From NCBI RefSeq assembly GCF_055900595.2, contig NZ_CM148325.1: DNA of 64,000 bases; one strand, 5' to 3'. How positions within the stretch are numbered: the stretch's first letter is position 1; each line of letters starts with the position of its first letter. The notes under the pieces are model-generated. The model was not told the DNA's origin, did not search any database, and saw only the letters and a list, made by a program, of their open reading frames with translations. Made by a program: the position numbers and the translations under genes. Positions 44,290-64,000 of this stretch are shown one piece after another.

Positions 44290-44309
44290 ACACCATCGCC
44301 AGAAATGCA

Positions 44310-44336
44310 AACAGGAGCCAGATGGCTCCTGTTTTT
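44310..44336 (+). terminator. Rho-independent terminator of alaC
   Basis: 10-bp stem aacaggagcc/ggctcctgtt, loop agat, followed by TTT. Confidence 0.5.
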
Positions 44337-44353
44337 CATTGCACAGTTTGCTT

Positions 44354-44425
44354 TTAGATCATCAGGGCAAAAGTACCGGCCCAAACGATGACCATAAAAG
44401 AAATGCCCATAAAGAAATATTTCAC
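44354..44425 (-). CDS. ypdK: Small membrane protein YpdK (23 aa, GTG start)
   Basis: Minus strand reads GTG-AAA-TAT... translating to MKYFFMGISFMVIVWAGTFALMI with GGAGAG about 8 nt upstream; too short for the ORF track. Confidence 0.55.
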   Translation of the reverse strand: MKYFFMGISFMVIVWAGTFALMI

Positions 44426-44712
44426 TTTACATCTCTCCGCGTAATTACTGTTACGCCTGAATGACTTCATTACACCTGATACAGTGAGTTGACACCGGGC
44501 AAAACGACATTGAAAGTCCGTATTTTACCGTGGGCATCACCCCAGAATTCTGAGCTAAACTGCTCCAGACGGCGCTAATGTACGCCTAAAACTGAAACGA
44601 GACAAGAGGCATTTTCTTATTTACTTTTAGTAACTTACAGGTGTCTCATATCGGCGACAGTTTAATTTCTGACGGTAATAATTAGAGATTCAGCGAAGGA
44701 AAAAACCTTAAG

Positions 44713-44747
44713 AAAAAAGCCATAAAAACCATGAGGTTATTATGGCT
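44713..44747 (-). terminator. Candidate rho-independent terminator of lpxP
   Basis: On minus strand: stem agccata/tatggct followed by TTTTTT, about 35 nt 3' of lpxP stop. Confidence 0.45.
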
Positions 44748-44779
44748 GATTTGAGGAGGGAAAGAGTAAGAGCAATTTG

Positions 44780-45700
44780 TTAAATGTATAACGACGATTC
44801 TCCCACCGGGCGCGTTTTAAAGCGACGGTGGATCCAGAGGTACTGCTCAGGTGCGCGCATAATCTCTTTCTCGATAATCTTGTTCATATAGGCAGCGGCT
44901 TGATTTTCATCTGCCGGGTAGCCTTCCATTTCAGGGGTGATGAACAACCGATATCCGCTGTAATCCGCTTTTCTGACCATCGTTACGGTCAACATGGCTG
45001 CGCCAGAGAGACGAGAGAGGACATAGGTGCCATTGGTTGTGGCAACATTTTCTACCGCAAAGAACGGTGCGAAGGAGCTGCCTTTACGACCATAATCCTG
45101 ATCGGGAGCAAACCATACGGCTTCACCTTTCTTCAGCGCACCGACAATACCGCGCAGATTATTTCTGCCGATCATCGCTTTGTTAGAGCGCATGCGACCA
45201 CGGGTCTGCACCCATTCCATCAGCTGATTATTATGCGGACGATAGGTGGCCATCATTGGCTGACATAGTCCCATCACGCGGCCGCCCAATTCCAGCGACA
45301 TAAAATGGACGCCGACAACCATCACGCCACGATTTTGCAGTTGTGCGCGTTTGAGGTTATCCAGCCCTTCAACATCAAACCATTTACGTACGCGACTGTC
45401 GGGCCAGAACCATGCCATGCCGGTTTCTACCAGCGCCATGCCGAGTGAACGAAAGTTTTCGGCAATCATCTTCTCGCGCTCTTCAGCAGAATGCTGTGGG
45501 AAACAAAGTTCCAGGTTCTTACGGGCGATAGATTCACGACGTTTCAGGAATGGTCGCGCCATCGTGCCGATACGCGTGCCGAGAAAACAGAGAACAGGGT
45601 AAGGAAGCTGTACCCAAAGCCAGAGTACACCAAGCCCAAACCATGTGAGCCAGTAGCGAGGATGTAGAAACTCGCGGGAAAATTTGCATTTTGGAAACAT
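44780..45700 (-). CDS. lpxP: Lipid A palmitoleoyl-ACP acyltransferase LpxP (cold-induced LpxL paralog; start trimmed to MFPKCKF)
   Basis: 306 aa from trimmed start; LpxL/HtrB-family lauroyl/palmitoleoyl acyltransferase sequence. Confidence 0.9.
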   Translation of the reverse strand: MFPKCKFSREFLHPRYWLTWFGLGVLWLWVQLPYPVLCFLGTRIGTMARPFLKRRESIARKNLELCFPQHSAEEREKMIAENFRSLGMALVETGMAWFWPDSRVRKWFDVEGLDNLKRAQLQNRGVMVVGVHFMSLELGGRVMGLCQPMMATYRPHNNQLMEWVQTRGRMRSNKAMIGRNNLRGIVGALKKGEAVWFAPDQDYGRKGSSFAPFFAVENVATTNGTYVLSRLSGAAMLTVTMVRKADYSGYRLFITPEMEGYPADENQAAAYMNKIIEKEIMRAPEQYLWIHRRFKTRPVGESSLYI

Positions 45701-46053
45701 AGTTACCTTCTGTAGATACGAATTGTTGTATCGCAGAAGATTCCATGTCGACAGCGGTACACTCAATTGGTTGGGCCATCATGTACGACAATGGTTCCTG
45801 TAAAGAGTGTAAAGACTAGTCAGGACATAACCACGAGGAGCATGAATGCGGTGCTTTTACTTTATCACTGGCTGACTGCTTTCAGCTACTGATTATTTAT
45901 CGTGCAAAGTAAATATTTTTTTCGCACATTACAGTCTTGCATTTAACGTGCTGTTTTCATTAATACTTAGCAAAAATTGCCAGAGGTTAAGGATTGTCTT
46001 ACTATTAAAGTGACTGAAGTTACAGGTTTTTTAGCGCGGCAGGAGGTTGAGCT

Positions 46054-46296
46054 ATGATTTATTTATGGATGTTTCTCGCCCTGTGTATTGTCTGCGTAAG
46101 CGGATACATCGGTCAGGTACTGAACGTGGTCTCGGCGGTCTCTTCTTTCTTCGGCATGGTGATCCTCGCTGCACTCATTTACTACTTCACCATGTGGTTA
46201 ACTGGCGGTAATGAACTAGTGACGGGGATATTTATGTTTCTTGCCCCGGCTTGTGGCTTGATGATTCGCTTTATGGTGGGGTATGGCAGGCGGTAG
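46054..46296 (+). CDS. yfdY: Small inner-membrane protein YfdY (DUF2545)
   Basis: 80 aa, two predicted TM helices; conserved position. Confidence 0.75.
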   Translation: MIYLWMFLALCIVCVSGYIGQVLNVVSAVSSFFGMVILAALIYYFTMWLTGGNELVTGIFMFLAPACGLMIRFMVGYGRR

Positions 46297-46372
46297 TAGT
46301 TCAGGATGGATCATTTGGGCAGGTGCTCACATCATCAACAGATATGATTGTTCACCTGCCATGTGACAGACG

Positions 46373-46648
46373 CTATCGCACAGGATGAATAAGATAATTC
46401 GCCTTTGTCGGAAAAGGGGGCGTGATGTCTTCTGTGAGATTTAATGGTGGCGCATCTTCTCTCATCTTAAACAAAATCGCCTGTGATGGTTGAAGTTTTG
46501 TAGAATGAGTTGTCGTCATCACTGACGTTTTTTCTGTCCCTTTATAGCTCGTCTCACTTCCACCACCAGAAATGGAAAATGCAAAAACATTGCATGCCAT
46601 AATAGAGACCAATAAAAATAAGCTAAAAAGCATTAAGTTTACTTTCAT
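46373..46648 (-). CDS. ypdI: Small secreted/lipoprotein-like protein YpdI
   Basis: 91 aa with signal peptide and Cys near the cleavage region (SIMAC); conserved position. Confidence 0.75.
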   Translation of the reverse strand: MKVNLMLFSLFLLVSIMACNVFAFSISGGGSETSYKGTEKTSVMTTTHSTKLQPSQAILFKMREDAPPLNLTEDITPPFPTKANYLIHPVR

Positions 46649-46790
46649 AGAAAGTTATCCTGAGAATGGCTCACTGAGAACCTACGATGTTATGGCTGTA
46701 TTTACATTTAATTAATCAGTATTTACATCGATATAATAAATGACATCTCTTTGTGGTATATAAGAATAGTTCTCTGCGACAGGAAGCATA

Positions 46791-46845
46791 TTCCTACAAT
46801 TGTAAGACTAAATACTTCTTGCGATAATAACTACAACTGTAAGAT
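46791..46845. promoter_or_regulatory. Two EvgA-box-like 18-bp inverted repeats upstream of yfdX
   Basis: TTCCTACA-AT-TGTAAGAC (46791-46808) and TAACTACA-AC-TGTAAGAT (46828-46845) versus consensus TTCYTACA-N2-TGTARGAA. Confidence 0.45.
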
Positions 46846-46942
46846 AACCCTTTCAAAATGACCGTTGCTCTCTGATTTCTCATTTCATGCTCACCCAATA
46901 TGATGGCGGCGTTTTCTAAAACTGTTAAAGAATGAGGTAAGT

Positions 46943-47575
46943 ATGAAACGTTTAATTATGGCTACGATGGTCACAGCAGTTCTGGCATCTTCAACTGTAT
47001 GGGCTGCTGATAATGCACCGGTAGCAGCACAACAGCAAACTCAGCAAGTTCAGCAAACCCAGAAAACGGTAGCAGCAGAGCGTATCTCTGAACAGGGTTT
47101 ATATGCGATGCGTGACGTGCAGGTAGCGCGCCTGGCTCTGTTTCATGGCGATCCGGAAAAGGCAAAAGAACTGACCAATGAAGCTTCCGCTTTGCTGTCA
47201 GATGACAGTACTGAATGGGCAAAGTTCGCTAAGCCAGGTAAAAAGACCAATGTCAATGATGACCAATATATTTTCATTAATGCATCTGTCGGAATTTCTG
47301 AGAGTTATGTAGCGACACCCGAAAAAGAAGCCGCGATAAAAATTGCCAACGAAAAAATGGCGAAAGGGGATAAAAAGGGCGCAATGGAAGAGCTTCGCCT
47401 GGCCGGTGTTGGTGTAATGGAAAACCAATATCTGATGCCGCTTAAACAGACTCGTAATGCACTTGCTGATGCGCAGAAACTGCTTGATAAAAAGCAATAC
47501 TACGAGGCAAACCTGGCGCTTAAAGGTGCGGAAGATGGAATCATCGTCGATAGCGAAGCACTGTTTGTGAACTAA
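46943..47575 (+). CDS. yfdX: Periplasmic protein YfdX (EvgA-regulated, function unclear)
   Basis: 210 aa with signal peptide; first gene of yfdX-frc-oxc-yfdV-yfdE cluster. Confidence 0.9.
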
Positions 47576-47819
47576 TGCTGACAGGCAGCATATTGAAGTA
47601 AAAGATTTTACTCCCTCCTGGCGACAATTTTTTATGACCACAATACGACCGATTGTGGTCATAAAATTATTTGGCGCTCGCGGTTCTATTAACACGAATT
47701 TTCTATTCCTCAAAGTAAACATCAATAATCCCGTGTCATCACGAAATCATTGTTTATGTTATGTTTTATGGTACGATTTAAAAATCGTAATCATTTCCCT
47801 AACTGTAAATCACAATCGC

Positions 47820-47837
47820 TTCTTACAGTTGTAAGAA
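47820..47837. promoter_or_regulatory. Perfect EvgA-box palindrome about 250 bp upstream of frc
   Basis: TTCTTACA-GT-TGTAAGAA, a perfect 8-2-8 inverted repeat matching the EvgA consensus. Confidence 0.55.
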
Positions 47838-48088
47838 TAACATCACAAATGTCGCGGCTCTCTCTGATTACCGCAAACCAATATTTATCATATTCTTCTT
47901 TTCGTCCTCACTACTTACCATGCAAAAAGGAATTGGAAGTGGCGATGAAATGATTTTCCGCACTTGATACAGGAATTTAAAAATATCGAGTGCAGCTACG
48001 ACGATATTTTGCGGATTATTTATAGAGGGCGTTATGCCTTAAATAAACGCTAAATTAACATATATTTAATTAACTAATAGGTATTGCT

Positions 48089-49339
48089 ATGTCAACTCCA
48101 CTTCAAGGAATTAAAGTTCTCGATTTCACCGGTGTGCAATCTGGCCCATCTTGTACTCAGATGCTGGCGTGGTTTGGCGCTGACGTCATTAAAATTGAAC
48201 GTCCCGGCGTTGGTGACGTAACGCGTCGCCAGCTGCGAGATATTCCTGATATCGATGCGCTTTACTTCACCATGCTTAACAGCAACAAACGTTCTATTGA
48301 ATTAAATACCAAAACAGCGGAAGGCAAAGAGGTAATGGAAAAGCTGATCCGCGAAGCTGATATCTTGGTCGAGAACTTTCATCCAGGGGCTATTGATCAC
48401 ATGGGCTTCACCTGGGAGCATATTCAGGAAATCAACCCACGTCTGATTTTTGGTTCGATCAAAGGGTTTGATGAGTGTTCACCTTATGTGAATGTAAAAG
48501 CCTATGAAAACGTTGCTCAGGCAGCGGGTGGCGCGGCATCCACTACGGGTTTTTGGGACGGCCCGCCGCTGGTAAGCGCTGCAGCGTTGGGTGACAGCAA
48601 CACCGGAATGCATTTGCTGATCGGTTTACTTGCTGCTTTGCTGCATCGCGAAAAAACGGGGCGTGGGCAACGAGTTACCATGTCAATGCAGGATGCCGTG
48701 TTGAACCTTTGCCGCGTGAAATTACGTGACCAGCAGCGCCTCGATAAGCTGGGTTATCTGGAAGAATACCCGCAGTATCCGAATGGCACATTTGGCGACG
48801 CAGTACCACGCGGTGGTAATGCGGGTGGTGGCGGTCAGCCTGGCTGGATCCTGAAATGTAAAGGCTGGGAAACCGATCCTAACGCCTATATTTATTTCAC
48901 TATTCAGGAGCAAAACTGGGAAAACACCTGTAAAGCTATCGGCAAACCAGAATGGATTACCGATCCGGCATACAGTACAGCTCATGCCCGACAGCCACAT
49001 ATTTTCGATATTTTTGCTGAAATCGAAAAATACACTGTCACTATTGATAAACATGAAGCGGTGGCCTATTTGACTCAGTTTGATATTCCTTGTGCACCGG
49101 TTTTAAGTATGAAAGAAATTTCACTCGATCCCTCTTTGCGCCAAAGTGGCAGTGTTGTCGAAGTAGAGCAACCGTTGCGTGGAAAATATCTGACAGTTGG
49201 TTGTCCAATGAAATTCTCTGCCTTTACGCCGGATATTAAAGCTGCGCCGCTATTAGGTGAACATACCGCTGCTGTATTGCAGGAGCTGGGTTATAGCGAC
49301 GATGAAATTGCTGCAATGAAGCAAAACCACGCCATCTGA
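48089..49339 (+). CDS. frc: Formyl-CoA:oxalate CoA-transferase (family III CoA-transferase)
   Basis: 416 aa, CaiB/BaiF family; paired with oxc. Confidence 0.95.
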
Positions 49340-49392
49340 TATTAACGGGGGCTTCTGGCTCCCAATTTATAAAAATTTCGAGGTTATTAATC

Positions 49393-51087
49393 ATGTCAGA
49401 TCAACTTCAAATGACAGATGGTATGCATATCATCGTTGAAGCATTAAAACAGAATAATATTGACACTATTTATGGTGTTGTAGGTATTCCTGTGACGGAT
49501 ATGGCGCGCCATGCCCAGGCGGAAGGCATTCGTTATATTGGTTTTCGTCATGAGCAATCTGCAGGCTATGCGGCTGCGGCAAGCGGTTTTCTTACCCAAA
49601 AGCCAGGGATCTGCCTGACCGTTTCTGCGCCAGGATTCCTCAATGGTTTGACTGCATTGGCCAACGCAACAGTAAATGGTTTTCCGATGATCATGATCAG
49701 CGGCTCCAGCGATCGCGCGATCGTTGATCTCCAGCAAGGTGATTATGAAGAGCTGGACCAAATGAATGCGGCAAAACCCTATGCCAAAGCGGCATTCCGC
49801 GTTAACCAGCCGCAGGATCTTGGCATTGCGTTGGCACGCGCTATCCGGGTCTCCGTTTCGGGTCGCCCTGGTGGTGTTTATCTTGATTTGCCAGCAAATG
49901 TCCTGGCTGCGACGATGGAAAAAGACGAAGCATTAGCCACTATTGTTAAAGTTGAAAACCCATCGCCAGCGTTATTGCCATGCCCGAAGTCAGTCACTAG
50001 TGCAATTTCGCTGTTAGCAAAAGCAGAACGGCCATTAATTATCCTTGGTAAAGGCGCGGCGTATTCACAAGCTGATGAGCAGCTTCGTGAGTTTATTGAA
50101 AGTACCCAGATTCCATTCCTGCCAATGTCTATGGCGAAAGGGATCCTGGAAGATACGCATCCACTTTCTGCGGCGGCTGCGCGTTCGTTTGCGCTGGCAA
50201 ATGCTGATGTTGTCATGCTTGTTGGGGCGCGACTGAATTGGTTACTGGCGCACGGTAAAAAAGGATGGGCGGCAGATACACAGTTTATTCAACTGGATAT
50301 AGAACCGCAGGAAATTGACAGCAATCGACCCATTACTGTGCCAGTCGTTGGCGATATTGCATCCAGTATGCAAGGTATGCTGGCAGAACTGAAACAAAAC
50401 ACATTTACGACTCCACTGGTGTGGCGCGATATTTTAAATATCCACAAGCAGCAAAATGCGCAAAAAATGCATGAAAAGTTAAGTACAGATACCCAACCAT
50501 TAAATTACTTTAATGCATTGAGTGCGGTGCGCGATGTATTGCGCGAGAACCAGGATATTTATTTAGTTAATGAAGGGGCAAATACCCTAGATAATGCACG
50601 AAATATTATTGATATGTATAAACCACGTCGTCGTCTGGATTGTGGCACCTGGGGGGTTATGGGCATCGGTATGGGTTATGCTATCGGCGCGAGTGTAACC
50701 TCTGGTTCCCCAGTTGTTGCCATTGAAGGTGATAGTGCTTTTGGTTTCAGTGGGATGGAGATTGAAACGATTTGTCGATATAACCTGCCGGTGACAATCG
50801 TTATTTTTAATAATGGCGGCATCTACAGAGGAGACGGTGTTGATCTCAGTGGCGCTGGTGCACCATCACCAACAGATCTATTGCACCATGCAAGGTATGA
50901 CAAATTAATGGATGCATTTCGTGGCGTTGGATATAACGTCACCACGACAGATGAACTTCGTGATGCTTTAACCACCGGTATTCAGTCGCGCAAACCGACC
51001 ATTATTAATGTGGTCATCGACCCAGCAGCAGGAACTGAAAGTGGCCATATTACCAAACTTAACCCAAAACAAGTCTCTGGTAATTAA
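49393..51087 (+). CDS. oxc: Oxalyl-CoA decarboxylase (ThDP-dependent)
   Basis: 564 aa, thiamine-diphosphate enzyme with [14 protein letters not shown] ThDP-binding motif. Confidence 0.95.
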
Positions 51088-51155
51088 ATACTGACATCGT
51101 CTCCTCTTGCCAACTCATTATCGATGGTGAGGGGACCCTTATCGGAAATACTATT

Positions 51156-52100
51156 ATGCTAACATTTTTTATTGGCGATTTATTGCCTATTATCGTAATC
51201 ATGCTGTTGGGTTATTTTAGCGGCAGACGAGAAACTTTTTCAGAAGATCAAGCCCGGGCATTTAATAAACTGGTATTAAATTACGCTCTTCCTGCGGCCC
51301 TATTTGTTTCTATTACCCGGGCAAACAGGGAAATGATTTTTGCGGACACTCGCCTGACCCTTGTATCACTTGTGGTTATTGTCGGATGTTTCTTTTTCTC
51401 CTGGTTTGGTTGCTACAAATTTTTTAAACGTACCCATGCAGAAGCAGCAGTATGTGCATTAATTGCAGGTTCACCTACCATTGGATTCCTGGGGTTTGCA
51501 GTTCTCGACCCTATTTATGGTGATTCCGTATCAACAGGTTTAGTGGTAGCAATTATTTCTATTATTGTTAACGCAATTACTATTCCTATTGGTCTGTATT
51601 TGCTGAATCCCTCCTCAGGAGCGGATGGTAAGAAGAATAGCAATCTGAGCGCGTTAATCTCTGCGGCAAAGGAGCCAGTCGTATGGGCACCTGTTCTGGC
51701 AACGATCCTGGTGTTGGTTGGGGTAAAAATTCCGGCAGCATGGGATCCAACCTTTAATCTGATTGCGAAGGCCAACTCAGGGGTAGCGGTATTCGCTGCG
51801 GGTTTGACTCTGGCTGCACATAAATTCGAGTTCAGTGCTGAAATTGCTTATAACACCTTCCTGAAGCTGATTCTGATGCCACTGGCACTGCTTCTCGTTG
51901 GTATGGCATGTCATTTGAACAGCGAACATCTGCAGATGATGGTACTGGCAGGCGCATTACCGCCGGCATTCTCCGGAATCATTATTGCCAGCCGGTTTAA
52001 TGTCTACACCCGCACTGGTACAGCGTCATTGGCTGTTAGCGTGCTGGGTTTTGTCGTCACGGCTCCCTTGTGGATTTATGTCAGTCGACTGGTTTCATAA
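51156..52100 (+). CDS. yfdV: AEC-family membrane transporter YfdV
   Basis: 314-aa polytopic membrane protein. Confidence 0.9.
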
Positions 52101-52173
52101 TTAATCATGTTATTAATTTTCATAAATGCCGAAGAGTCTTTTCACCTTCGGCTTTTTTTCAAGGCATAAGCAA

Positions 52174-53319
52174 ATGACAAATACTGAAAGCAAAGGCCCA
52201 TTTGAAGGGTTATTAGTTATTGATATGACTCATGTCCTTAATGGGCCTTTCGGAACTCAACTCCTTTGTAATATGGGCGCAAGGGTCATTAAAGTTGAGC
52301 CGCCGGGTCATGGTGATGATACCCGCACATTTGGTCCCTATGTGGATGGGCAGTCACTCTATTACAGTTTTATTAATCATGGCAAAGAGAGCGTGGTTCT
52401 TGATTTAAAGAATGACCACGATAAAAGTATATTTATAAATATGCTTAAACAAGCTGATGTATTAGCCGAGAATTTCCGCCCAGGTACAATGGAAAAAATG
52501 GGGTTTTCGTGGGAAACGCTACAAGAAATCAACCCACGTCTCATCTATGCTTCATCGTCAGGTTTCGGACATACCGGTCCGCTAAAAGATGCTCCGGCCT
52601 ACGATACCATTATTCAGGCAATGAGTGGAATAATGATGGAAACGGGATATCCTGATGCTCCGCCAGTGCGTGTTGGCACCTCTCTTGCAGATCTCTGTGG
52701 CGGTGTCTATTTATTCAGTGGAATCGTGAGTGCGCTTTATGGCCGCGAAAAGAGCCAGCGAGGGGCGCATGTCGATATCGCGATGTTTGATGCCACTCTG
52801 AGTTTTCTGGAGCATGGACTGATGGCATATATCGCGACTGGGAAGTCACCACAACGTCTGGGAAATCGCCATCCCTACATGGCTCCTTTTGATGTTTTCG
52901 ATACTCAGGATAAACCAATTACTATTTGTTGTGGTAATGACAAGCTTTTTTCTGCGTTATGCCAGGCACTGGATCTGACGGAACTTGTTGATGATCCCCG
53001 ATTTAACAGCAATATTTTACGTGTACAAAATCAAGCTATTCTTAAACAATATATTGAGCGGACGTTAAAAACGCAGGCAGCTGAAGTTTGGTTAGCCAGA
53101 ATACATGAAGTTGGTGTACCCGTAGCGCCGTTATTAAGTGTGGCTGAGGCCATTAATTTGCCACAAACTCAGGCGAGAAATATGTTGATTGAAGCCGGGG
53201 GAATAATGATGCCGGGTAATCCGATAAAAATCAGCGGCTGCGCGGACCCGCATGTTATGCCGGGAGCGGCAACGCTCGACCAGCATGGGGAACAAATTCG
53301 CCAGGAATTCTCATCGTAA
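52174..53319 (+). CDS. yfdE: Acetyl-CoA:oxalate CoA-transferase YfdE (start trimmed to MTNTESK)
   Basis: 381 aa from trimmed start; family III CoA-transferase, paralogous to frc. Confidence 0.9.
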   Translation: MTNTESKGPFEGLLVIDMTHVLNGPFGTQLLCNMGARVIKVEPPGHGDDTRTFGPYVDGQSLYYSFINHGKESVVLDLKNDHDKSIFINMLKQADVLAENFRPGTMEKMGFSWETLQEINPRLIYASSSGFGHTGPLKDAPAYDTIIQAMSGIMMETGYPDAPPVRVGTSLADLCGGVYLFSGIVSALYGREKSQRGAHVDIAMFDATLSFLEHGLMAYIATGKSPQRLGNRHPYMAPFDVFDTQDKPITICCGNDKLFSALCQALDLTELVDDPRFNSNILRVQNQAILKQYIERTLKTQAAEVWLARIHEVGVPVAPLLSVAEAINLPQTQARNMLIEAGGIMMPGNPIKISGCADPHVMPGAATLDQHGEQIRQEFSS

Positions 53320-53341
53320 ATGTTAGATGTGCTGGTAAATA

Positions 53342-53368
53342 GCTCCCACATTTGAACATTGTGGGAGC
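53342..53368. other. 9-bp-stem hairpin between convergent yfdE and evgS (possible terminator)
   Basis: gctcccaca ... tgtgggagc inverted repeat; no clear T-run. Confidence 0.3.
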
Positions 53369-53374
53369 CGCTAT

Positions 53375-56300
53375 TTAGTCATTTTGTTGACAGAAAACCG
53401 CAATCTCCTGGTCTAACTCTGCAATGTGTTCTTTAACAGAGTTCAGCAACTTAAGAATTTCAGGCTTGCTGTCATCTGAAACTGGCGTTATTTCTAACTG
53501 GTGGCTAAGATTAATCAACTTTTGCAAATTCAGGATGTTAGCCGCACCGTGGATGCGATGAATACACTGATGGAAAGTTCTGTTATCGCCAGCTTCTAAC
53601 GCATGAAACGCAGCGGGTAGATCTTTATGCGTTTCATGCTGGAAAGTCATGAGAATCTCCTGCATCAGTTGTAGATCGTTCGCCGTATTATTTTTCAGGG
53701 CCTCGATATCAAGGTGGCGATACTGAGGTGCAATATGTGCAACCTGGTGTAACTGACTTAAATGTGTTTTCAGTACATCCAGGGTTAACGGTTTGAACAA
53801 ACATAAGTTCATGCCGCAATTTAACCCTTTTTCACGTTCGTTAGCCTGTGCGTTGGCTGTAAGCCCCCAGATGGGTAAGGAAGAATTTTGCTCACGGAGT
53901 TTGCGAGTCAACTCAAAACCATCCATATTCGGCATATTAACGTCAGTAATAAGCAGATCATAATGCTGCATACTGACTTTGTGTAGCGCCTGTACACCAT
54001 CAGAGGCTTCATCAACATCATATCCTAATAGGTTTAGCTGGCGTTTGAGTAATAGCCTGTTGGTCGGATGATCATCCGCGATTAATATGCTCAACTTTTC
54101 AGGGAGTGTCATAGGTTGTTCTGCTTTTGCCTCGACAGTCGCCACTTGTTGGGTAATTTCTACCGGGATTGTGATCGTAAATGTCGTTCCTATGCCGGGA
54201 TGACTTTCTAATGACAAATCGCCCTGCATGTTTTTAATTAATTCTTTGCAGATCATTAAGCCTAAACCAGAACCTGTTTGCTGACGACCTGCTGTTGTTT
54301 GGCTATAGCGTTTAAACAGTTGTTGTTGTTCTTCCTGCGATAATCCGCTTCCGGTGTCCATAATCGTCATTTTGATAACAGCGTGGTTGTCATCAATATG
54401 AACCAGGGAAGTCGTAATTTTTACTGCCCCCTCGGTGGTAAATTTAAGGGCATTACTCAGTAAATTAGACAGCACCTGCTTAAATGCTTGAGGGTCGATT
54501 TTAACCAGGTAGCGTTCAGGAAGCGTACTGCTGCAATTTAATGCGATGGATTTGCTTGCAGCAATCGCACCGAAAGAATGACAAGTGTTCTGGACTAAAG
54601 TAGGGATATCGACCCATTGTGGTTGAAGTTGATAGTTACCCGACTCAATTTTGTCGACATCAAGGATTTCACCAATTAAGCCGAGGAGCGACTGTCCGGT
54701 GGCGTAAGCAAGTGAAATCGCCTCCACACGTTGCTCCTTGCTAAGACCTGAACCCGACAGAAGTTCCAGGAAGCCCATAATGGAGCTTATTGGTGTTCTT
54801 ATTTCGTGACTCATTGTTGCCAGGAACTGGCTTTTTGCGACAGTTGCATTGATCGCTTTATTTCTTTCTACTTCGAGTGCATGAATTAAATCACGCGTCT
54901 CGGTAATATCTTGCCAACCACAAATATATACTGCATTGTCACTTGCAGGTAAATTGCATAATGTATGCCAATGATTAATGCATCTTTTTTCAGTACCATT
55001 ATTAATTTCAAAAACTTGGCTATATATTGTTCTGTTTTCTTTTGTTTCTGCTGTGACTTCATGCACATTAGAAAAAACATCTTTAAAGGGGGAGTCACTG
55101 TTTTCTAATGGTAACATTGCATTTTTGTAGTAATCAGCAGTGAAATAATGTTCAAATGCACTATTGTGACTAATGACATTACCTTGCCAGTTTACAACAT
55201 AAGTTGGATTCGGTAAGGAATCCGAGAGTGCTTTCCGGAATGATATTTGGTTTTCTAAATCACCCTGAATTACCTTACGACGACGAACTGAGCGTAACAG
55301 GTAGAATCCCCATAAAAGGCTACTGCCAACTAATAAAACGGATAAAGTCGTAACAATGTAAAATTGCTCACTATAGAGGTCCCATGTGTCAATGGTCACA
55401 TTGGGCATTTTGATCCATTTTTCCGTCAGGCGCAGAACTTCGCTTGGGGGAATTGCATTCAATGCTTTATTAATAATATCCTTAAGTTCTGGTTCTCCGC
55501 GAGGAAAAGCGAACGAAAGCGATGCATTCTCAACGCCGGGAATAAGAAAATGATAAAGCTCATTAGGATAGTAATGGTCGATCATGTAACGCGAATTTAG
55601 CTGTGTCGCGACCAGGGCATCAAGTTCACCTTCCTTAACCTTGTGAAATGCAGCGCTAGCATTATCGACTTGTATCCACTCAACCTCCGGATACATCTCT
55701 TTCAATTGCGAATGAAGCTCATAATAATATGGAATGGCAACTTTCATTCCTTTTTTTAAAGTTTGTTCACTATCAGGCGCTTTTTGCATGACGAAAACGT
55801 AAGGCGTTGTTATGAATGCTTCAGCAAATAAAACATTATTTTCTCGATCTTCATTATAAATAGCGCCAGGTAAGATATCCCATCCATCGGGATTAAGCTG
55901 TGTTCCGGCATGGATATTGTGTGAAACGGTGATCGGAGAAAATCTTAAACCTGTTTGCAATGTAATAATATTAAGAATATCCCCCATAACGCCCCGAACC
56001 GAGCCATTTTCATCAGTCATAGAATAGGGAGGGGAGTAAGGATTTTCCAGCACCTTTAAATCGGGATGTTGCTTAATCCACTGTTTTTCATGTTCAGTGA
56101 GTTCTAATGGTTTGTTCAGAAAGGCCAGGTTTCCTGTATCAAGCCAATTTTGTGATACTTCATAGCGAACTTCATTTGTTAAAGCATCAACAAACCGATT
56201 GAGTACTTCATTAAGAATGACGGATTCTTTTCTGGTCAAGAAAAAATTATATTGACGCGGCGAGTTATAATATTTCACTACATTTAAGGAGTGAGTGAAA

Positions 56301-56968
56301 TAGCGGGAAATCATACTGCTGGTAATGATGTTACTACCAATAAAGTAATCATTATGTCCGGTAGAAACGGATGCTAATGCCTGATATAAATTTGTAAAAG
56401 AGATAATTGTTGCTTTTGGAAATGATTGATGAATTACCTTGTCTGGGGGGTAATTTGCTACCCGAGCAATATTTACTGGTTTTGGTGAGGTAAGCGGTCG
56501 CATTGAGTCGTGAAGGGTGGTTACCAGCGCCGGAAAGGTAATTATCAATGGTTTGGTTGCAGCAATGTCATTATTAAGAGGCGGCGAAGTAACTAAATGT
56601 GATAACACTATATCGACTTCACCTTCTGCAAGCGCGTCCATTGCTTTTTGATGATCTGCGTATTCCCGGAGTGTTAATTTGATATTTAACGCTCTTTTTA
56701 AAAGATTTAAATAATCAGCATTAATACCACGAACCCGTTGCTGCGAATCGGTATGCAACAACGTAGCCGTTTGGGACTTGTGTACTGCAATCACAAGATT
56801 TTTTTTGCTCGCTAACCAACGTAATTCCTTGTTGCTCAGACGTAGTGGATCAAGCGTGACACGGTTGTTACTACTGATGCCACGATATTCGATGTAATCT
56901 TCGTCTGCGAAACTTATGGTCGACCAAAGACCACAACAGAGAAGAAAAAAATAGGGTAAAAACTTCAT
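53375..56968 (-). CDS. evgS: Hybrid sensor histidine kinase EvgS (periplasmic tandem binding domains, HisKA/HATPase, receiver, HPt)
   Basis: 1197 aa; His box SHEIRTP, receiver domain and C-terminal HPt. Confidence 0.95.
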   Translation of the reverse strand: MKFLPYFFLLCCGLWSTISFADEDYIEYRGISSNNRVTLDPLRLSNKELRWLASKKNLVIAVHKSQTATLLHTDSQQRVRGINADYLNLLKRALNIKLTLREYADHQKAMDALAEGEVDIVLSHLVTSPPLNNDIAATKPLIITFPALVTTLHDSMRPLTSPKPVNIARVANYPPDKVIHQSFPKATIISFTNLYQALASVSTGHNDYFIGSNIITSSMISRYFTHSLNVVKYYNSPRQYNFFLTRKESVILNEVLNRFVDALTNEVRYEVSQNWLDTGNLAFLNKPLELTEHEKQWIKQHPDLKVLENPYSPPYSMTDENGSVRGVMGDILNIITLQTGLRFSPITVSHNIHAGTQLNPDGWDILPGAIYNEDRENNVLFAEAFITTPYVFVMQKAPDSEQTLKKGMKVAIPYYYELHSQLKEMYPEVEWIQVDNASAAFHKVKEGELDALVATQLNSRYMIDHYYPNELYHFLIPGVENASLSFAFPRGEPELKDIINKALNAIPPSEVLRLTEKWIKMPNVTIDTWDLYSEQFYIVTTLSVLLVGSSLLWGFYLLRSVRRRKVIQGDLENQISFRKALSDSLPNPTYVVNWQGNVISHNSAFEHYFTADYYKNAMLPLENSDSPFKDVFSNVHEVTAETKENRTIYSQVFEINNGTEKRCINHWHTLCNLPASDNAVYICGWQDITETRDLIHALEVERNKAINATVAKSQFLATMSHEIRTPISSIMGFLELLSGSGLSKEQRVEAISLAYATGQSLLGLIGEILDVDKIESGNYQLQPQWVDIPTLVQNTCHSFGAIAASKSIALNCSSTLPERYLVKIDPQAFKQVLSNLLSNALKFTTEGAVKITTSLVHIDDNHAVIKMTIMDTGSGLSQEEQQQLFKRYSQTTAGRQQTGSGLGLMICKELIKNMQGDLSLESHPGIGTTFTITIPVEITQQVATVEAKAEQPMTLPEKLSILIADDHPTNRLLLKRQLNLLGYDVDEASDGVQALHKVSMQHYDLLITDVNMPNMDGFELTRKLREQNSSLPIWGLTANAQANEREKGLNCGMNLCLFKPLTLDVLKTHLSQLHQVAHIAPQYRHLDIEALKNNTANDLQLMQEILMTFQHETHKDLPAAFHALEAGDNRTFHQCIHRIHGAANILNLQKLINLSHQLEITPVSDDSKPEILKLLNSVKEHIAELDQEIAVFCQQND

Positions 56969-56972
56969 GTGA

Positions 56973-57587
56973 TTAGCCGATTTTGTTACGTTGCGCGAAT
57001 GTGTAAAGATCCATCAGTGATTTACATTCTAATTTTTCCATCAGGCGACTTTTATACGTGCTGACAGTTTTGTTGCTGATGAACATTTTTTCCGCAATGT
57101 CATTATTGTCCTTGCCATCAAGAATATACCTCATGACACTAATTTCTTGTTTCGATAAGGAGTCGAGTTTTTGCTGGTCGGACGTTAAACTTCCAACAAA
57201 CCGGTTGAGAGAGAAAGGGAAATAGCAGTAGCCATTTTTTGCAGCTTCAATAGCCGCAATGATATTGTTCATGCCTTCTTTTTTACTCACGAATCCATTA
57301 GCGCCTGCATCAGCACAATGTTTCCCGTAAAAATGGTCATTTTTAGCGGAGACGATAATAATAATTCCGCTATATTGGCGCTTCCTCAGCGTTTCTAACA
57401 CCTGGATACCGTTAACTCCGGGGATATCGACATCAATGATGACGATATCAGGTTTAAGTGTTTCCACCCGCTGAACGGCACTTCCCCCTTCAGTCAACTC
57501 CGCTAAGATTTCAATATCGTTTTTGATCAATAAATTACGAATTGCTGCGATAGCAAGAGGATGGTCATCAATAATTATTGCGTTCAT
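56973..57587 (-). CDS. evgA: Response regulator EvgA (NarL/FixJ family)
   Basis: 204 aa; receiver domain plus LuxR-type HTH. Confidence 0.95.
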   Translation of the reverse strand: MNAIIIDDHPLAIAAIRNLLIKNDIEILAELTEGGSAVQRVETLKPDIVIIDVDIPGVNGIQVLETLRKRQYSGIIIIVSAKNDHFYGKHCADAGANGFVSKKEGMNNIIAAIEAAKNGYCYFPFSLNRFVGSLTSDQQKLDSLSKQEISVMRYILDGKDNNDIAEKMFISNKTVSTYKSRLMEKLECKSLMDLYTFAQRNKIG

Positions 57588-57801
57588 AGATTATTCCCTT
57601 TGCAATGAAGCATCTCCCTTCTCCCTGTAGTAATACAGACATAAGGCATCATCTCATTTTCTCAATCAAAATAAGAAAATTTGAGCTTCCTTTAAGATAA
57701 TTCAACAAGTATACCATATAAATAGTCGGCATAAATGAAATGTCAACAATAAAATCAGGGATAATACCGCTAACTTATAGTTTCAAATGAGTACTATAAG
57801 G

Positions 57802-57819
57802 CTTCTTATTAATCCTACA
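57802..57819. promoter_or_regulatory. EvgA-box-like inverted repeat in evgA-emrK divergent region
   Basis: ATCCTACA-GG-CGTAAGAA versus TTCYTACA-N2-TGTARGAA, one mismatch per half. Confidence 0.5.
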
Positions 57820-58002
57820 GGCGTAAGAATTGTATTGCAAAAGTCACGGTTTAGTCCTCTGTTGTATCTTCTGCAACTCCTTTAAATTAGGCCTCCAACG
57901 TTCCTGGGATAATGTGTAACACATGCACTGTGTTTGATATGAAGAATGAATACTCTTTTCATTCAATTCATAAATTTCATCTATGCGAAATGAGAGATAA
58001 TA

Positions 58003-59166
58003 GTGGAACAGATTAATTCAAATAAAAAACATTCTGACAGAAGAAAATATTTTGCTTTATTAGCAGTGGTTTTATTTATTGCGTTTTCAGGAGCCTATGC
58101 CTATTGGTCACTGGAATTAGAAGACATGATTAGTACAGATGACGCCTATGTTACGGGGAATGCTGATCCAATTTCTGCACAAGTCTCAGGCAGTGTCACT
58201 GTCGTTAATCATAAAGATACGAACTTTGTTCGACAGGGTGACATTTTAGTTTCACTGGATAAAACTGATGCTACGATTGCACTCAATAAAGCTAAAAATA
58301 ATCTGGCAAATATTGTGCGACAAACGAATAAACTATACTTACAGGATAAACAATACAGTGCCGAAGTCGCTTCAGCACGTATCCAGTATCAACAATCTTT
58401 AGAAGATTATAATCGTCGTGTGCCGCTAGCAAAGCAGGGGGTTATTTCAAAAGAAACGCTGGAGCACACCAAAGATACGTTAATAAGTAGCAAAGCGGCA
58501 TTGAATGCAGCTATTCAGGCTTATAAAGCGAACAAAGCCTTAGTAATGAACACACCATTAAATCGCCAGCCACAAGTTGTTGAAGCTGCGGATGCAACCA
58601 AAGAAGCCTGGTTGGCGCTTAAACGTACGGATATTAAGAGTCCGGTTACCGGTTATATTGCCCAGAGAAGTGTTCAGGTCGGCGAAACAGTGAGTCCTGG
58701 ACAATCGTTAATGGCTGTCGTACCGGCACGTCAAATGTGGGTTAATGCCAACTTTAAAGAAACACAACTCACGGATGTACGGATTGGTCAATCGGTTAAT
58801 ATAATCAGCGATCTTTATGGTGAAAATGTTGTGTTTCATGGTCAGGTGACAGGGATCAATATGGGAACCGGCAATGCGTTCTCCTTATTACCTGCACAAA
58901 ATGCGACAGGGAACTGGATCAAAATCGTTCAGCGTGTACCGGTTGAGGTGTCTCTGGATCCAAAAGAACTCATGGAACATCCCTTGCGCATTGGTTTATC
59001 GATGACTGCAACCATTGATACCAGGAACGAAGACATTGCCGATATGCCTGATCTGGCTTCATCCGTGACGTCAATGCCTGCTTACACCAGTAAGGCCTTA
59101 GTTATCGATACCAGTCCGATAGAAAAAGAGATTAACAACATTATTTCTCATAATGGACAACTTTAA
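58003..59166 (+). CDS. emrK: Multidrug efflux periplasmic adaptor EmrK (EmrA paralog)
   Basis: 387 aa HlyD-family membrane fusion protein. Confidence 0.93.
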   Translation: MEQINSNKKHSDRRKYFALLAVVLFIAFSGAYAYWSLELEDMISTDDAYVTGNADPISAQVSGSVTVVNHKDTNFVRQGDILVSLDKTDATIALNKAKNNLANIVRQTNKLYLQDKQYSAEVASARIQYQQSLEDYNRRVPLAKQGVISKETLEHTKDTLISSKAALNAAIQAYKANKALVMNTPLNRQPQVVEAADATKEAWLALKRTDIKSPVTGYIAQRSVQVGETVSPGQSLMAVVPARQMWVNANFKETQLTDVRIGQSVNIISDLYGENVVFHGQVTGINMGTGNAFSLLPAQNATGNWIKIVQRVPVEVSLDPKELMEHPLRIGLSMTATIDTRNEDIADMPDLASSVTSMPAYTSKALVIDTSPIEKEINNIISHNGQL

Positions 59167-60704
59167 TGGCAATCACTAAATCAACTCCGGCACCATTAAC
59201 CGGTGGGACGTTATGGTGCGTCACTATTGCATTGTCATTAGCGACGTTTATGCAAATGTTGGACTCCACTATTTCTAACGTCGCAATACCCACAATATCT
59301 GGCTTTCTCGGAGCATCAACGGACGAAGGCACATGGGTTATCACATCGTTTGGCGTAGCAAATGCCATTGCGATCCCTGTTACCGGCAGGCTGGCACAAA
59401 GAATAGGCGAATTAAGGTTATTTTTACTATCAGTAACCTTCTTTTCGCTGTCTTCATTAATGTGTAGTCTTTCGACTAATCTTGATGTTCTTATATTTTT
59501 TAGAGTCGTCCAGGGATTAATGGCGGGGCCGTTAATTCCATTGTCACAGAGTTTATTATTAAGGAATTATCCGCCAGAAAAAAGAACATTTGCTTTGGCG
59601 TTATGGTCAATGACCGTAATTATCGCTCCGATTTGTGGGCCGATATTGGGTGGCTATATTTGTGATAACTTTAGTTGGGGATGGATATTTTTAATCAATG
59701 TCCCTATGGGGATTATCGTCCTGACATTATGTTTAACTTTACTTAAAGGAAGAGAAACTGAAACTTCACCGGTCAAAATGAATTTACCAGGGTTGACCCT
59801 GTTAGTGCTCGGTGTTGGTGGCTTGCAAATTATGCTTGATAAAGGGCGCGATCTGGATTGGTTTAACTCGAGTACAATCATAATATTAACAATAGTGTCA
59901 GTTATTTCTCTGATCTCTCTAGTCATTTGGGAGTCGACCTCAGAGAACCCGATTCTTGACCTCAGTTTATTCACGTCGCGTAATTTCACCATTGGTATTG
60001 TGTGTATCACATGCGCATATTTATTTTACTCTGGGGCGATTGTACTTATGCCGCAGTTGCTGCAGGAAACTATGGGGTATAATGCGATATGGGCCGGGCT
60101 TGCCTATGCGCCAATCGGCATAATGCCACTATTAATATCGCCTTTAATAGGACGTTATGGCAACAAAATTGATATGCGTGCATTGGTTACATTTAGTTTT
60201 TTGATGTATGCGGTTTGCTATTACTGGCGTTCTGTGACATTTATGCCAACGATTGATTTCACAGGCATCATTTTGCCACAGTTTTTCCAGGGATTCGCCG
60301 TTGCCTGTTTCTTTTTACCCTTAACAACGATTTCGTTTTCAGGGTTGCCAGATAATAAATTTGCCAATGCCTCGAGTATGAGTAATTTTTTTCGTACCCT
60401 GTCAGGATCAGTTGGTACGTCGTTGACAATGACGTTGTGGGGACGACGCGAATCGTTACACCATAGTCAGTTGACAGCAACCATCGATCAATTTAACCCC
60501 GTGTTTAATTCATCATCACAAATTATGGATAAATACTATGGTTCGCTTTCAGGGGTTCTTAATGAAATTAATAATGAAATAACTCAGCAGTCACTTTCAA
60601 TTTCTGCAAATGAGATTTTCCGTATGGCGGCTATTGCTTTTATCTTACTTACGGTATTGGTTTGGTTTGCGAAACCGCCGTTTACAGCGAAAGGTGTTGG
60701 GTGA
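59166..60704 (+). CDS. emrY: Multidrug efflux MFS transporter EmrY (EmrB paralog)
   Basis: 512 aa, 14-TM MFS; start overlaps emrK stop. Confidence 0.93.
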   Translation: MAITKSTPAPLTGGTLWCVTIALSLATFMQMLDSTISNVAIPTISGFLGASTDEGTWVITSFGVANAIAIPVTGRLAQRIGELRLFLLSVTFFSLSSLMCSLSTNLDVLIFFRVVQGLMAGPLIPLSQSLLLRNYPPEKRTFALALWSMTVIIAPICGPILGGYICDNFSWGWIFLINVPMGIIVLTLCLTLLKGRETETSPVKMNLPGLTLLVLGVGGLQIMLDKGRDLDWFNSSTIIILTIVSVISLISLVIWESTSENPILDLSLFTSRNFTIGIVCITCAYLFYSGAIVLMPQLLQETMGYNAIWAGLAYAPIGIMPLLISPLIGRYGNKIDMRALVTFSFLMYAVCYYWRSVTFMPTIDFTGIILPQFFQGFAVACFFLPLTTISFSGLPDNKFANASSMSNFFRTLSGSVGTSLTMTLWGRRESLHHSQLTATIDQFNPVFNSSSQIMDKYYGSLSGVLNEINNEITQQSLSISANEIFRMAAIAFILLTVLVWFAKPPFTAKGVG

Positions 60705-60781
60705 TGGTAAAAAGAGGAGGCTAGAGCAGGCAAGTCCGCGGAATTTTGAACCTGTACCATCATTTTATATGGATATTATCA

Positions 60782-60821
60782 GGCAGCATCGCTCACCCAG
60801 GGAAAGGATGGCGATGCTGCG
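60782..60821. other. Perfect 10-bp inverted repeat hairpin between convergent emrY and dsdA (possible terminator)
   Basis: gcagcatcgc ... gcgatgctgc; no T-run. Confidence 0.3.
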
Positions 60822-60832
60822 GTGAAACGTTA

Positions 60833-62161
60833 TTAACGGCCTTTAGCCAGATATTGCTTCATCTCTTCTTCCGGCACCATTCCACCTCCTGTCGCCCACA
60901 CCAGATGAGTGGCATTACGCAGTTGTTCTGTGCTGAAACCTTGCATCTGTTGGTAAATTACTGATGCGCACACGCGCTGAGGCCCGGCCATACCCGCCAG
61001 TGCTGAAGGCTCAAGACGAATGTCTTCTTCCTGCGCCAGCCAGCCAAGCATGTCATACATGGTTTGATCGCTAAGGGTATAGAAGCCATCCAGCAGACGC
61101 TCCATTGCCCGCCCGACAAAGCCTGATGCGCGACCAACAGCAAGGCCATCCGCTGCGGTAAGGTTGTCGATACCAATATCCTGAACAGAAATCTGATCGT
61201 GTAATCCAGTATGGACGCCTAACAGCATACAAGGGGAGTGCGTGGGTTCGGCAAAAAAGCAGTGAACATGATCGCCAAACGCCAGTTTAAGACCGAATGC
61301 GACGCCACCAGGACCACCGCCAACGCCACACGGCAGATAGACAAACAGAGGGTTACCAGCATCGACGATACGACCTTGCTTGGCAAATTGCGCTTTAAGA
61401 CGCTGGCCTGCGACGGAATACCCAAGGAACAACGTGCGGGAATTCTCGTCATCAATAAAGAAACAGTTCGGGTCAGACTGCGCTGCTTTACGTCCTTCCT
61501 CGACGGCAACCCCATAATCTTGCTCATATTCCACGACCGTAACGCCATGGCTGCGCAGTTTCTCTTTTTTCCATGCTCGGGCATCAGCAGACATATGCAC
61601 TGTCACCTTAAAGCCAATGCGGGCGCTCATAATGCCGATTGATAACCCCAGATTTCCGGTTGAGCCCACAGCAATGCTGTATTGGCTAAAGAACTGTTTA
61701 AACTCCGGAGAAAGCAGTTTGCTGTAGTCATCTTCAAGCGTCAGCAACCCTGCTTCCAGAGCCAGTTTTTCTGCATGTGCCAGGACTTCATAAATCCCGC
61801 CGCGTGCTTTTATGGAGCCGGAAATAGGCAAATGGCTATCTTTTTTCAGTAACAGTTGCCCGCTGATCGGTTGCTGATATTCCTTTTCCAGCCGTTTTTG
61901 CATAGCCGGAATGGCAACCAGTTCTGATTCAATAATCCCTCCAGAGGCAGCCGTTTCAGGAAATGCTTTTGCCAGATAGGGGGCAAAACGAGATAAGCGC
62001 GCATGGGCGTCCTGAACATCCTGTTCGGTCAGGCCAACATAAGGTAAACCTTCAGCCAATGAGGTCGTGCCAGGATTGAACCAGGTGGTTTCTTTAAGAG
62101 CAACCAGATCCTTTACCAACGGATACTGGGCGATGAGCGAGTTCATTTTAGCGTTTTCCAT
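60833..62161 (-). CDS. dsdA: D-serine ammonia-lyase (D-serine dehydratase)
   Basis: 442 aa [19 protein letters not shown]...; PLP-lysine context SGSIKARGG. Confidence 0.95.
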
Positions 62162-62361
62162 AGTATGTCTCTTTGCGCTTCGATGATAAATGACAGCAGG
62201 AATGTGCCCGCCAGAGCGACGACTGAAGCGATAAATGTCGCTGTCGTATAGTATTTATATGTTTCACTGAGCGTAGCGCCGCAAAATTGTTTCATCAGCC
62301 AGAAAAACGAGTCCGTAACGATCGTGCAGCCAATCGCAATAATTTCCGGGCTGATGTCTGG
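62143..62361 (-). pseudogene. dsdX: 3'-terminal remnant of D-serine transporter gene dsdX (about 72 codons, 5' truncated)
   Basis: Hand translation of minus strand gives [60 protein letters not shown]..., a GntP-family C-terminus; frame closed by in-frame TAA at 62362-62364; overlaps dsdA start. Confidence 0.5.
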
Positions 62362-62617
62362 TTACAGCCACAGCACAATGATCCATATTTATATTTTTTC
62401 TCCGGGTGGGTGATGCCAGTCGGCATGTTTTACCTACTTGTCTGCATGGTGACTCGTTGGCGAGAACAGAGGCGGAATTGGTTACAATTGTCCGGGAATT
62501 CTTGTTATTTTTTACTGTATTGTCGTGTCGGGTGATAGGACGTTAAGAATATCGCTGGATCTCGCCAGTGACGTCTGTTTCTGCTACAGTGCCCGTTTTA
62601 CGGCAAACGGCTTGGGT

Positions 62618-63613
62618 ATGGCTTCATTAAAGGATGTCGCACGCCTGGCGGGAGTGTCGATGATGACTGTCTCCCGGGTGATGCATAATGCAGAATCTGT
62701 GCGTCCTGCAACGCGTGACCGCGTATTGCAGGCAATCCAAACCCTGAATTATGTTCCTGATCTTTCCGCTCGTAAGATGCGCGCTCAGGGACGTAAGCCG
62801 TCGACTCTCGCCGTGCTGGCGCAGGATACTGCTACCACTCCTTTCTCTGTTGATATTCTGCTTGCCATTGAACAAACCGCCAGCGAGTTTGGCTGGAATA
62901 GTTTTTTAATCAATATTTTTTCTGAAGATGACGCTGCCCGCGCGGCACGTCAGCTGCTTGCCCTCCGTCCGGATGGCATTATCTATTCTACAATGGGACT
63001 GAGGCATATCACGCTGCCTGAGTCTCTGCATGGTGAAAATATTGTATTGGCGAACTGTGTGGCGGATGACCCAGCGTTACCCAGTTATATCCCTGATGAT
63101 TACACTGCCCAATATGAAGCAACACAGCATTTGCTCGCGGCAGGCTATCGTCAACCGTTATGCTTCTGGCTACCGGAAGGTGCGTTGGCAACAGGGTATC
63201 GTCGGCAGGGATTTGAGCAGGCCTGGCGTGATGCTGGACGAGATCTGGCTGAGGTGAAACAATTTCACATGGTCATAGGTGATGATCACTACACCGATCT
63301 CGCAAGTATACTCAATGCCCACTTCCCGTCTGGAAAACCAGATTTTGATGTTCTGATTTGTGGTAACGATCGCGCAGCCTTTGTGGCTTATCAGGTTCTT
63401 CTGGCGAAGGGGGTACGTATCCCGCAGGATGTCGCCGTAATGGGCTTTGATAATCTGGTTGGCGTCGGGCATCTGTTTTTACCGCCGCTGACCACAATTC
63501 AGCTTCCACATGACATTATCGGGCGGGAAGCTGCATTGCATATTATTGAAGGTCGTGAAGGGGGAAGGGTAACGCAGATCCCTTGCCCGCTGTTGATCCG
63601 TTGTTCCACCTGA
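62618..63613 (+). CDS. cscR: LacI-family sucrose operon repressor CscR (start trimmed to MASLKDV)
   Basis: 331 aa from trimmed start; LacI-type HTH (MASLKDVARLAGVSMMTVSRVMHN) and periplasmic-binding-like sugar domain. Confidence 0.85.
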   Translation: MASLKDVARLAGVSMMTVSRVMHNAESVRPATRDRVLQAIQTLNYVPDLSARKMRAQGRKPSTLAVLAQDTATTPFSVDILLAIEQTASEFGWNSFLINIFSEDDAARAARQLLALRPDGIIYSTMGLRHITLPESLHGENIVLANCVADDPALPSYIPDDYTAQYEATQHLLAAGYRQPLCFWLPEGALATGYRRQGFEQAWRDAGRDLAEVKQFHMVIGDDHYTDLASILNAHFPSGKPDFDVLICGNDRAAFVAYQVLLAKGVRIPQDVAVMGFDNLVGVGHLFLPPLTTIQLPHDIIGREAALHIIEGREGGRVTQIPCPLLIRCST

Positions 63614-63620
63614 TATTATG

Positions 63621-64000
63621 TTACCCCAGTTGCCAGAGTGCTCCATGTTTCAGCACGGCCACTCCGTGGGCGGCATAGAGCGACAGTTCCCGTTCTTCTG
63701 GCTGCGGATAGATTCGGCTACTCATCACTGCTTCCCCGTCGTTAATAAATACTTCCACGGATGATGTATCGATAAATATCCTTAGGGCGAGCGTGTCACG
63801 CTGCGGGAGGGGAATACTACGGTAACCATCTAAATTCTCGTGTGGGTAATACCGCCACAAAACAAGTCGCTCAGATTGGTTATCAATATACAGCCGCATT
63901 CCCGTGCCGAGCTGTAATCCGTAATGTTCGGCATCGCTGTTCTTCAGAGCCCAGTGCAACTGAATCTCAACCGCTTGCGCGTTTTCCTGCAAAACATATT
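63621..64000 (-). CDS. cscA: Sucrose-6-phosphate hydrolase / invertase CscA (GH32), C-terminal part only; gene runs off right edge
   Basis: Minus-strand ORF ending 7 nt from cscR stop, C-terminal beta-sandwich-like sequence; convergent cscR-cscA arrangement typical of the csc locus. Confidence 0.75.
   Translation of the reverse strand, partial: YVLQENAQAVEIQLHWALKNSDAEHYGLQLGTGMRLYIDNQSERLVLWRYYPHENLDGYRSIPLPQRDTLALRIFIDTSSVEVFINDGEAVMSSRIYPQPEERELSLYAAHGVAVLKHGALWQLG

Follow-up and report, generated by a model that had tools for sequence, protein, structure and literature searches.

A diverged csc island junction in Escherichia coli that probably leaves an intact dsdA gene without D-serine induction

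The window analyzed here is the whole 64,000-nucleotide stretch of contig NZ_CM148325.1, and close to its end the D-serine ammonia-lyase gene dsdA (start codon at 62161, minus strand) and the repressor gene cscR (start codon at 62618) are transcribed away from each other (Table 1). The first-pass annotation had described the roughly 450 bp between them as holding only a remnant of dsdX and about 250 bp of noncoding DNA, and the layout we obtained agrees with this, the gap of 456 bp being the sum of 17, 197 and 242 bp. By homology, this interval is where the chromosomal csc sucrose island (cscB-cscK-cscA-cscR), located next to argW, meets the dsd locus on its dsdA side, and the structure is defined by that homology and is not a chance pattern. 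In genomes identical over the region, PGAP annotates the dsdX remnant as a partial pseudogene with a missing N-terminus. The identity of cscR follows from the annotation in identical genomes, from matches to LacI-family profiles, and from a close allele that already bears the name CscR.

Table 1. Features of the dsdA–cscR region (coordinates are those of the window)
Feature	Coordinates	Strand	Description	Basis
dsdA	60833..62161	minus	intact D-serine ammonia-lyase ORF, 442 aa	
50-aa ORF	62143..62295	minus	old dsdX frame; overlaps the dsdA start by 19 nt; probably not expressed	
dsdA–cscR gap	62162..62617		456 bp between the two ATG codons	
dsdX-dsdA spacer	62162..62178	minus	native 17-nt spacer with the dsdA ribosome-binding region	alignments
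dsdX 3' remnant	62179..62375	minus	197 bp (218 bp in mainstream csc+ genomes)	alignments
Breakpoint	62375..62376		dsdX-derived DNA / csc-island DNA; minus strand ...GATCATTG/TGCTG...	
csc-side noncoding DNA	62376..62617		242 bp upstream of cscR	
cscR	62618..63613	plus	LacI-family sucrose-operon repressor, 996 bp; transcription directed away from dsdA	
cscA, 3' part	63621..64000	minus	sucrose-6-phosphate hydrolase, cut by the window end	annotation

The DsdA protein matches the NCBIfam equivalog TIGR02035 over its full length (807.9 bits, cut-off 368) and aligns without gaps to K-12 DsdA, with 431 of 442 residues identical (98%). The SGSIK118AR motif, with Lys118, which we take to be the PLP lysine, is unchanged between the two proteins. 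In the 17-nt spacer there is one SNP relative to the K-12 and mainstream alleles, G to A at −5; by predicted RNA folding, the accessibility of the dsdA Shine–Dalgarno sequence and start codon is not lowered relative to the mainstream allele, and there is no meaningful folding difference. Thus the native ribosome-binding site and the reading frame of dsdA are preserved, and the gene has neither an activator gene nor an activator-dependent promoter in cis. On the opposite side of the gene, the convergent emrY-dsdA intergenic region (60705–60832) measures 128 bp (K-12, 107 bp); the part that aligns is confined to the 51 bp next to dsdA, with the CAGCATCGC...GCGATGCTG hairpin, and the 77 bp on the emrY side are related to neither K-12 nor O111:H8.

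We aligned the region with MG1655 dsdX-dsdA and with one mainstream csc+ genome, then with seven other csc+ alleles. Homology to K-12 reaches from dsdA to 62375 and stops there, and the junction that had been posited in the first-pass annotation is in this way mapped, against K-12 dsdX, to the boundary 62375/62376. The following segment, 62376–62617, has no K-12 counterpart and is common only to csc+ genomes. The breakpoint is identical in all eight csc+ alleles aligned (the window and the seven others, including O111:H8); for EHEC, this statement refers to the aligned ERL04-3476 and O111:H8 rather than to EDL933. The single breakpoint nucleotide in all eight alleles indicates descent from one event. 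An independent insertion event for the window allele was considered and rejected, its breakpoint being the mainstream one.

The locus lacks dsdC, the dsdC-dsdX control region with the dsdX promoter, and 5/6 of dsdX (its first ~1,120 bp). The claim of the first-pass annotation that dsdA has lost its DsdC-dependent dsdX promoter is therefore borne out, and with only the last 197 bp of dsdX left, the locus is not a DsdC-activated dsdXA operon of the K-12 type. We also considered whether dsdA could still be inducible by D-serine and rejected this, as nothing of the DNA that DsdC targets remains in cis. In strain E200086, which is identical to the window over 20 kb, cscB is followed by torI-side sequence, which in K-12 lies beyond dsdC; in the genomes identical to the window, dsdA and the junction are single-copy. 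Compared with the dsdCXA system of K-12 and UPEC, with its LysR-type activator DsdC, the window is homologous and collinear over dsdA, the 17-nt spacer, and the last ~200 bp of dsdX, but the locus lacks dsdC, the promoter/operator between dsdC and dsdX, and a functional dsdX.

The gene arrangement corresponds to the csc configuration: cscR adjoins the dsdX remnant and converges with cscA, from which cscK-cscB diverges. The same order of dsdA, dsdX remnant, cscR, cscA, cscK, and cscB is found where csc has replaced dsdCX at argW in EC3132, E. coli W, and EHEC O157:H7 EDL933, a system with which the window also shares the breakpoint in dsdX, the loss of dsdC and the dsdX promoter, and an intact dsdA with its native spacer and ribosome-binding site. 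That cscRAKB took the place of dsdC and part of dsdX at the argW hotspot, and that sucrose use and D-serine use consequently exclude each other, was described earlier (Connolly 2015, PMC4366372), and later papers cite Alaeddinoglu & Charles 1979, Jahreis 2002, and Moritz & Welch 2006 for the same replacement and exclusion. Both the observation of the junction and its regulatory reading are thus already established in the literature.

Some further details of the island were noted. Just 5' of the cscR start codon, at 62590–62607, there is an inverted repeat, CCGTTT-N6-AAACGG, a candidate operator or hairpin. Past the window end, at 32505–33228 of the locus sequence L004, torI and prophage genes come after cscB, and the annotation shows no tRNA-Arg in between; in strains 162.2, F1053, and O111:H8, argW comes directly after cscB. 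A prophage has probably integrated at argW in the window lineage, as in K-12.

The junction of the window differs from the mainstream csc-for-dsdCX junction, to which it is 89.7% identical. In the csc-side segment (62376–62617) the identity is 91.8%, with 19 substitutions and a 1-bp indel. The dsdX remnant has a 21-bp deletion relative to the mainstream allele, located between 62335 and 62334 and flanked by ATTG microhomology; the window allele also carries a 1-bp deletion, and the dsdX stop codon is lost (TAA to GAA, 62179–62181). Eight SNPs distinguish the two alleles within the 150 bp upstream of dsdA, among them TTTAAAT to TATAAAT and CTGGTG to CTGATG, the latter 17 bp upstream of TACGCT, and some of the eight fall around the reported dsdA promoter at −115. 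A Val-to-Met SNP, which creates a new ATG, together with the lost stop codon gives rise to the 50-aa ORF of Table 1; when the bases were read by eye, no obvious Shine–Dalgarno sequence was seen upstream of this ORF, and it is probably not expressed.

The junction, counted as present when covered over at least 80% of its length, occurs in 2,658 of 5,426 complete E. coli genomes, that is, in about half. The window-type allele (identity of at least 95%) is found in ~26 of these 2,658 genomes, 10 of which are identical to it. Over the interval 44000–64000, 8 of the 5,426 genomes are 100% identical to the window and 13 are at 99% or above; E200086, one of the identical ones, came from human stool in Mali. 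The comparable part of the window, 7456–62375, is ~96% identical to K-12 (89 to 99.5% in 1-kb bins), and together with a core-gene dS of 0.11–0.29 this indicates a rare, deep-branching E. coli lineage, possibly one akin to the cryptic clades.

Synonymous divergence from the mainstream amounts to 0.09–0.17 for the csc genes and ~0.09–0.10 for dsdA, and this divergence between csc haplotypes indicates that the junction is old. Recombination is rife around it. The csc+ strain EC61 carries a DsdA protein identical to that of K-12 (same accession, WP_000426427.1), which indicates that csc and dsd configurations swap by homologous recombination without dsdA being replaced. Allele combinations of other kinds were also recorded: in BEC1 and 2EC1 the distal junction is of the window type and the proximal remnant of the mainstream type, in 162.2 and F1053 a window-type dsdA (99.1%) adjoins a mainstream junction, and strain 2013C-4282 is identical over 62000–62800 and has 204 differing sites across 54000–64000.

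We then compared the coding sequence of dsdA between alleles. The dN/dS ratio is 0.10–0.13 relative to the mainstream csc+ and K-12 alleles, close to the 0.06–0.18 of the functional csc genes, and there are 9–12 nonsynonymous differences versus ~96 expected under neutrality. Ten genomes, all of them csc+, carry the window-type dsdA allele; every one of them has an intact gene, and among these ten there are 43 synonymous and 18 nonsynonymous segregating changes (p = 1.6 × 10−14 against neutral proportions). No indels are present in dsdA, versus four different deletion events in the adjacent 456 bp among the eight alleles aligned. The purifying selection and the intact state in all ten relatives indicate that dsdA is probably not dead. 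Judged from sequence comparison, the gene is not decaying in the window lineage and is still under constraint, the evidence being modest. Part of the signal of purifying selection may have been inherited through recombination with dsdCXA+ strains, because csc+ EC61 has a DsdA identical to that of K-12.

These values bear directly on the possibility that dsdA is a fully silent relic in the course of pseudogenization, with a junction that gives no transcriptional output toward it. Such a reading agrees with the lack of a consensus promoter in the junction, with the absence of growth of csc+ strains on D-serine (PMC4366372), and with the name of silent enzyme given to dsdA of EHEC by O'Boyle et al. 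(2020, PNAS; PMC7486766). Moreover, dsdA is disrupted in three of ten mainstream csc+ genomes taken as a spread sample (loci L002, L006, and L021), by a stop at codon 197 in O111:H8 7-58 72A and by frameshifts in 2014C-3011 and F8111-1SC3, and dsdA of E. coli W is described as a pseudogene. However, a drifting gene would not be expected to show a dN/dS of ~0.1 over a synonymous divergence similar to the 8% seen in the adjacent noncoding junction, or so few nonsynonymous changes, no indels next to a segment with four deletions, and an intact frame in every window-type relative. It should be noted that a 2026 PNAS paper reports dsdA of EHEC to be intact and not up-regulated by D-serine, because dsdC is lost, and finds that disruption of dsdA raises the basal activity of the recA promoter (PMC13012123); a knockout phenotype implies some expression of the gene. 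We therefore regard a fully silent relic as quite improbable.

The first-pass annotation had suggested that dsdA may be silent or constitutive rather than inducible by D-serine. Of this, the loss of inducibility appears to stand, given the EHEC papers, and the word silent appears too strong in view of the EHEC knockout phenotype and the purifying selection.

If some transcription reaches dsdA, it would have to start in the junction or come from the island, as was supposed in the first-pass annotation; this supposition holds with a refinement, namely that cscR points away from dsdA, so that read-through from the island can be supplied only by cscA, antisense through cscR. We looked for signals of both kinds with promoter and terminator scans covering 61900–64000.

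As for initiation, a consensus sigma-70 scan found no promoter-like site on either strand in 61900–62900. With a sigma-70 position weight matrix, the best score on the dsdA-sense strand was 6.7, below the median best score of shuffled sequences (7.9), and the best scores of the mainstream allele and of K-12 were likewise below the shuffled ones. Since nothing exceeds shuffled sequence, the dsdAp at −115 of O'Boyle et al. is neither confirmed nor located by these scans. An Rfam scan of 61800–63000 gave no family, with one chance SNORD49 match below threshold.

It could be supposed that an effective new constitutive promoter arose from the SNPs of the window or from the formation of the junction, so that this lineage, unlike EHEC, makes useful amounts of DsdA. 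The eight window-type SNPs upstream of dsdA, including the changes that give TATAAAT and CTGATG, would fit this, as would the intact dsdA in every genome with the window-type allele. On the other hand, the best window-specific candidate scores 5.2, which, like the overall best, is below the shuffled median; the TATAAA box, when the sequence is read by eye, has no acceptable −35 element at 16–18 bp, and the SNPs resemble the general ~5–8% neutral divergence of the region. A new effective promoter is thus, in our estimate, highly unlikely. The allele is ~8% off the one studied in EHEC in the junction, and its junction SNPs may give a promoter stronger or weaker than that of EHEC.

As for read-through, cscA is the closest island gene with the same direction as dsdA, and the distance from its stop codon to dsdA is 1,459 nt (~1.46 kb). 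On the minus strand between these two points no strong intrinsic terminator was predicted, and there are two weak terminator-like hairpins. The sole hairpin inside the junction (62213–62194) belongs to native dsdX; K-12 has the identical sequence there and reads dsdXA as a single operon. The 1-kb stretch antisense to cscR is untranslated, with 10–21 stop codons per frame, and it has C-rich, G-poor stretches with a C/G ratio of up to 2.4, as scored by a C/G-skew heuristic for Rho-utilization sites. This skew suggests, at the level of the heuristic, a Rho-dependent loss of read-through in the wild type.

Published data on EHEC allow the two sources to be weighed (O'Boyle 2020; PMC7486766). Wild-type upstream fragments fused to gfp gave 63–134 RFU, and this weak series includes the fragment from cscAp to codon 6 of dsdA, measured with CscR present and without sucrose. 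Two spontaneous deletions, LCV2, which begins 149 bp short of the cscA 3' end and reaches 8 bp into cscR, and LCV10B, of 5.6 kb, place dsdA under cscAp or z3622p. The deletion variants express dsdA constitutively (2,001 and 257 RFU), with 33-fold more dsdA mRNA, and catabolize D-serine; deletion of cscR also makes dsdA constitutive, and cscR supplied in trans represses it again. As the LCV2 deletion keeps the whole junction, the latter must be permeable to transcription. LCV2, LCV10B, and the cscR deletion are thus cases in which an orphan dsdA is activated by promoter capture across a junction that lets transcription pass, but none of these deletions is present in the window, where cscR is intact, as is cscA at its 3' end.

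The same data can be read as meaning that dsdA owes most of its expression to read-through from the cscA promoter, which CscR represses; this would make dsdA inducible by sucrose rather than by D-serine. Here the co-directional cscA, the stretch of 1,459 nt with no strong intrinsic terminator predicted, the 33-fold rise in EHEC dsdA on deletion of cscR or fusion of cscA to the junction, with repression by cscR in trans, and the purifying selection, which requires some expression to act on, all point in one direction. Nevertheless, the wild-type fragment that includes the cscA promoter yields no more than the low fluorescence given above, the untranslated antisense cscR bears the heuristic signature of Rho-dependent termination, and convergent transcription of cscR would oppose read-through from cscA. 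Our search of the literature, including O'Boyle 2020, found no report of sucrose-dependent dsdA expression in wild-type csc+ cells. Expression mainly by read-through is in our opinion unlikely.

Overall, our analysis makes it probable that the csc junction leaves an intact dsdA that is no longer inducible, is transcribed at a low constitutive level, and can be activated by deletion, and, jointly with this, that the window carries a copy of this junction that is rare, old and diverged, with extra decay in the dsdX remnant; this degree of confidence refers to the explanation as a whole. In this explanation the csc island took the place of dsdC, of the dsdX promoter that depends on DsdC, and of the first ~1.1 kb of dsdX. 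Judging from EHEC, dsdA would then lack induction by D-serine, and its transcription would be low and constitutive, with its source in a weak promoter activity of the terminal ~200 bp of dsdX, in some remaining cscA transcription that crosses antisense cscR, or in both. The resulting level of dsdA would be too low for growth on D-serine or for its detoxification, and deletions that move an island promoter closer would switch the gene on.

With some hesitation, and as a possibility we think doubtful, it can be suggested that the orphan dsdA is maintained, not a relic, in a role that is independent of D-serine or re-wired. The suggestion draws on the persistence of one junction across a synonymous divergence of about 0.09–0.17 between two csc haplotypes, with dsdA under purifying selection meanwhile. 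Such a role may be low constitutive detoxification of endogenous or dietary D-serine, or coupling to sucrose through read-through from the cscA promoter.

Taken together, the window adds to the known system a rare diverged junction allele in a deep lineage, with a dsdA gene still under selective constraint. The csc/dsd switch at argW is among the better-known either-or metabolic polymorphisms of E. coli, between the use of sucrose and that of D-serine, and D-serine serves as a niche signal by which intestinal (LEE+) pathotypes are set apart from those of the urinary tract and of meningitis. If dsdA is indeed expressed via cscA read-through or a weak internal promoter, this would explain why the orphan gene is frequently intact and how D-serine tolerance can evolve through single deletions.
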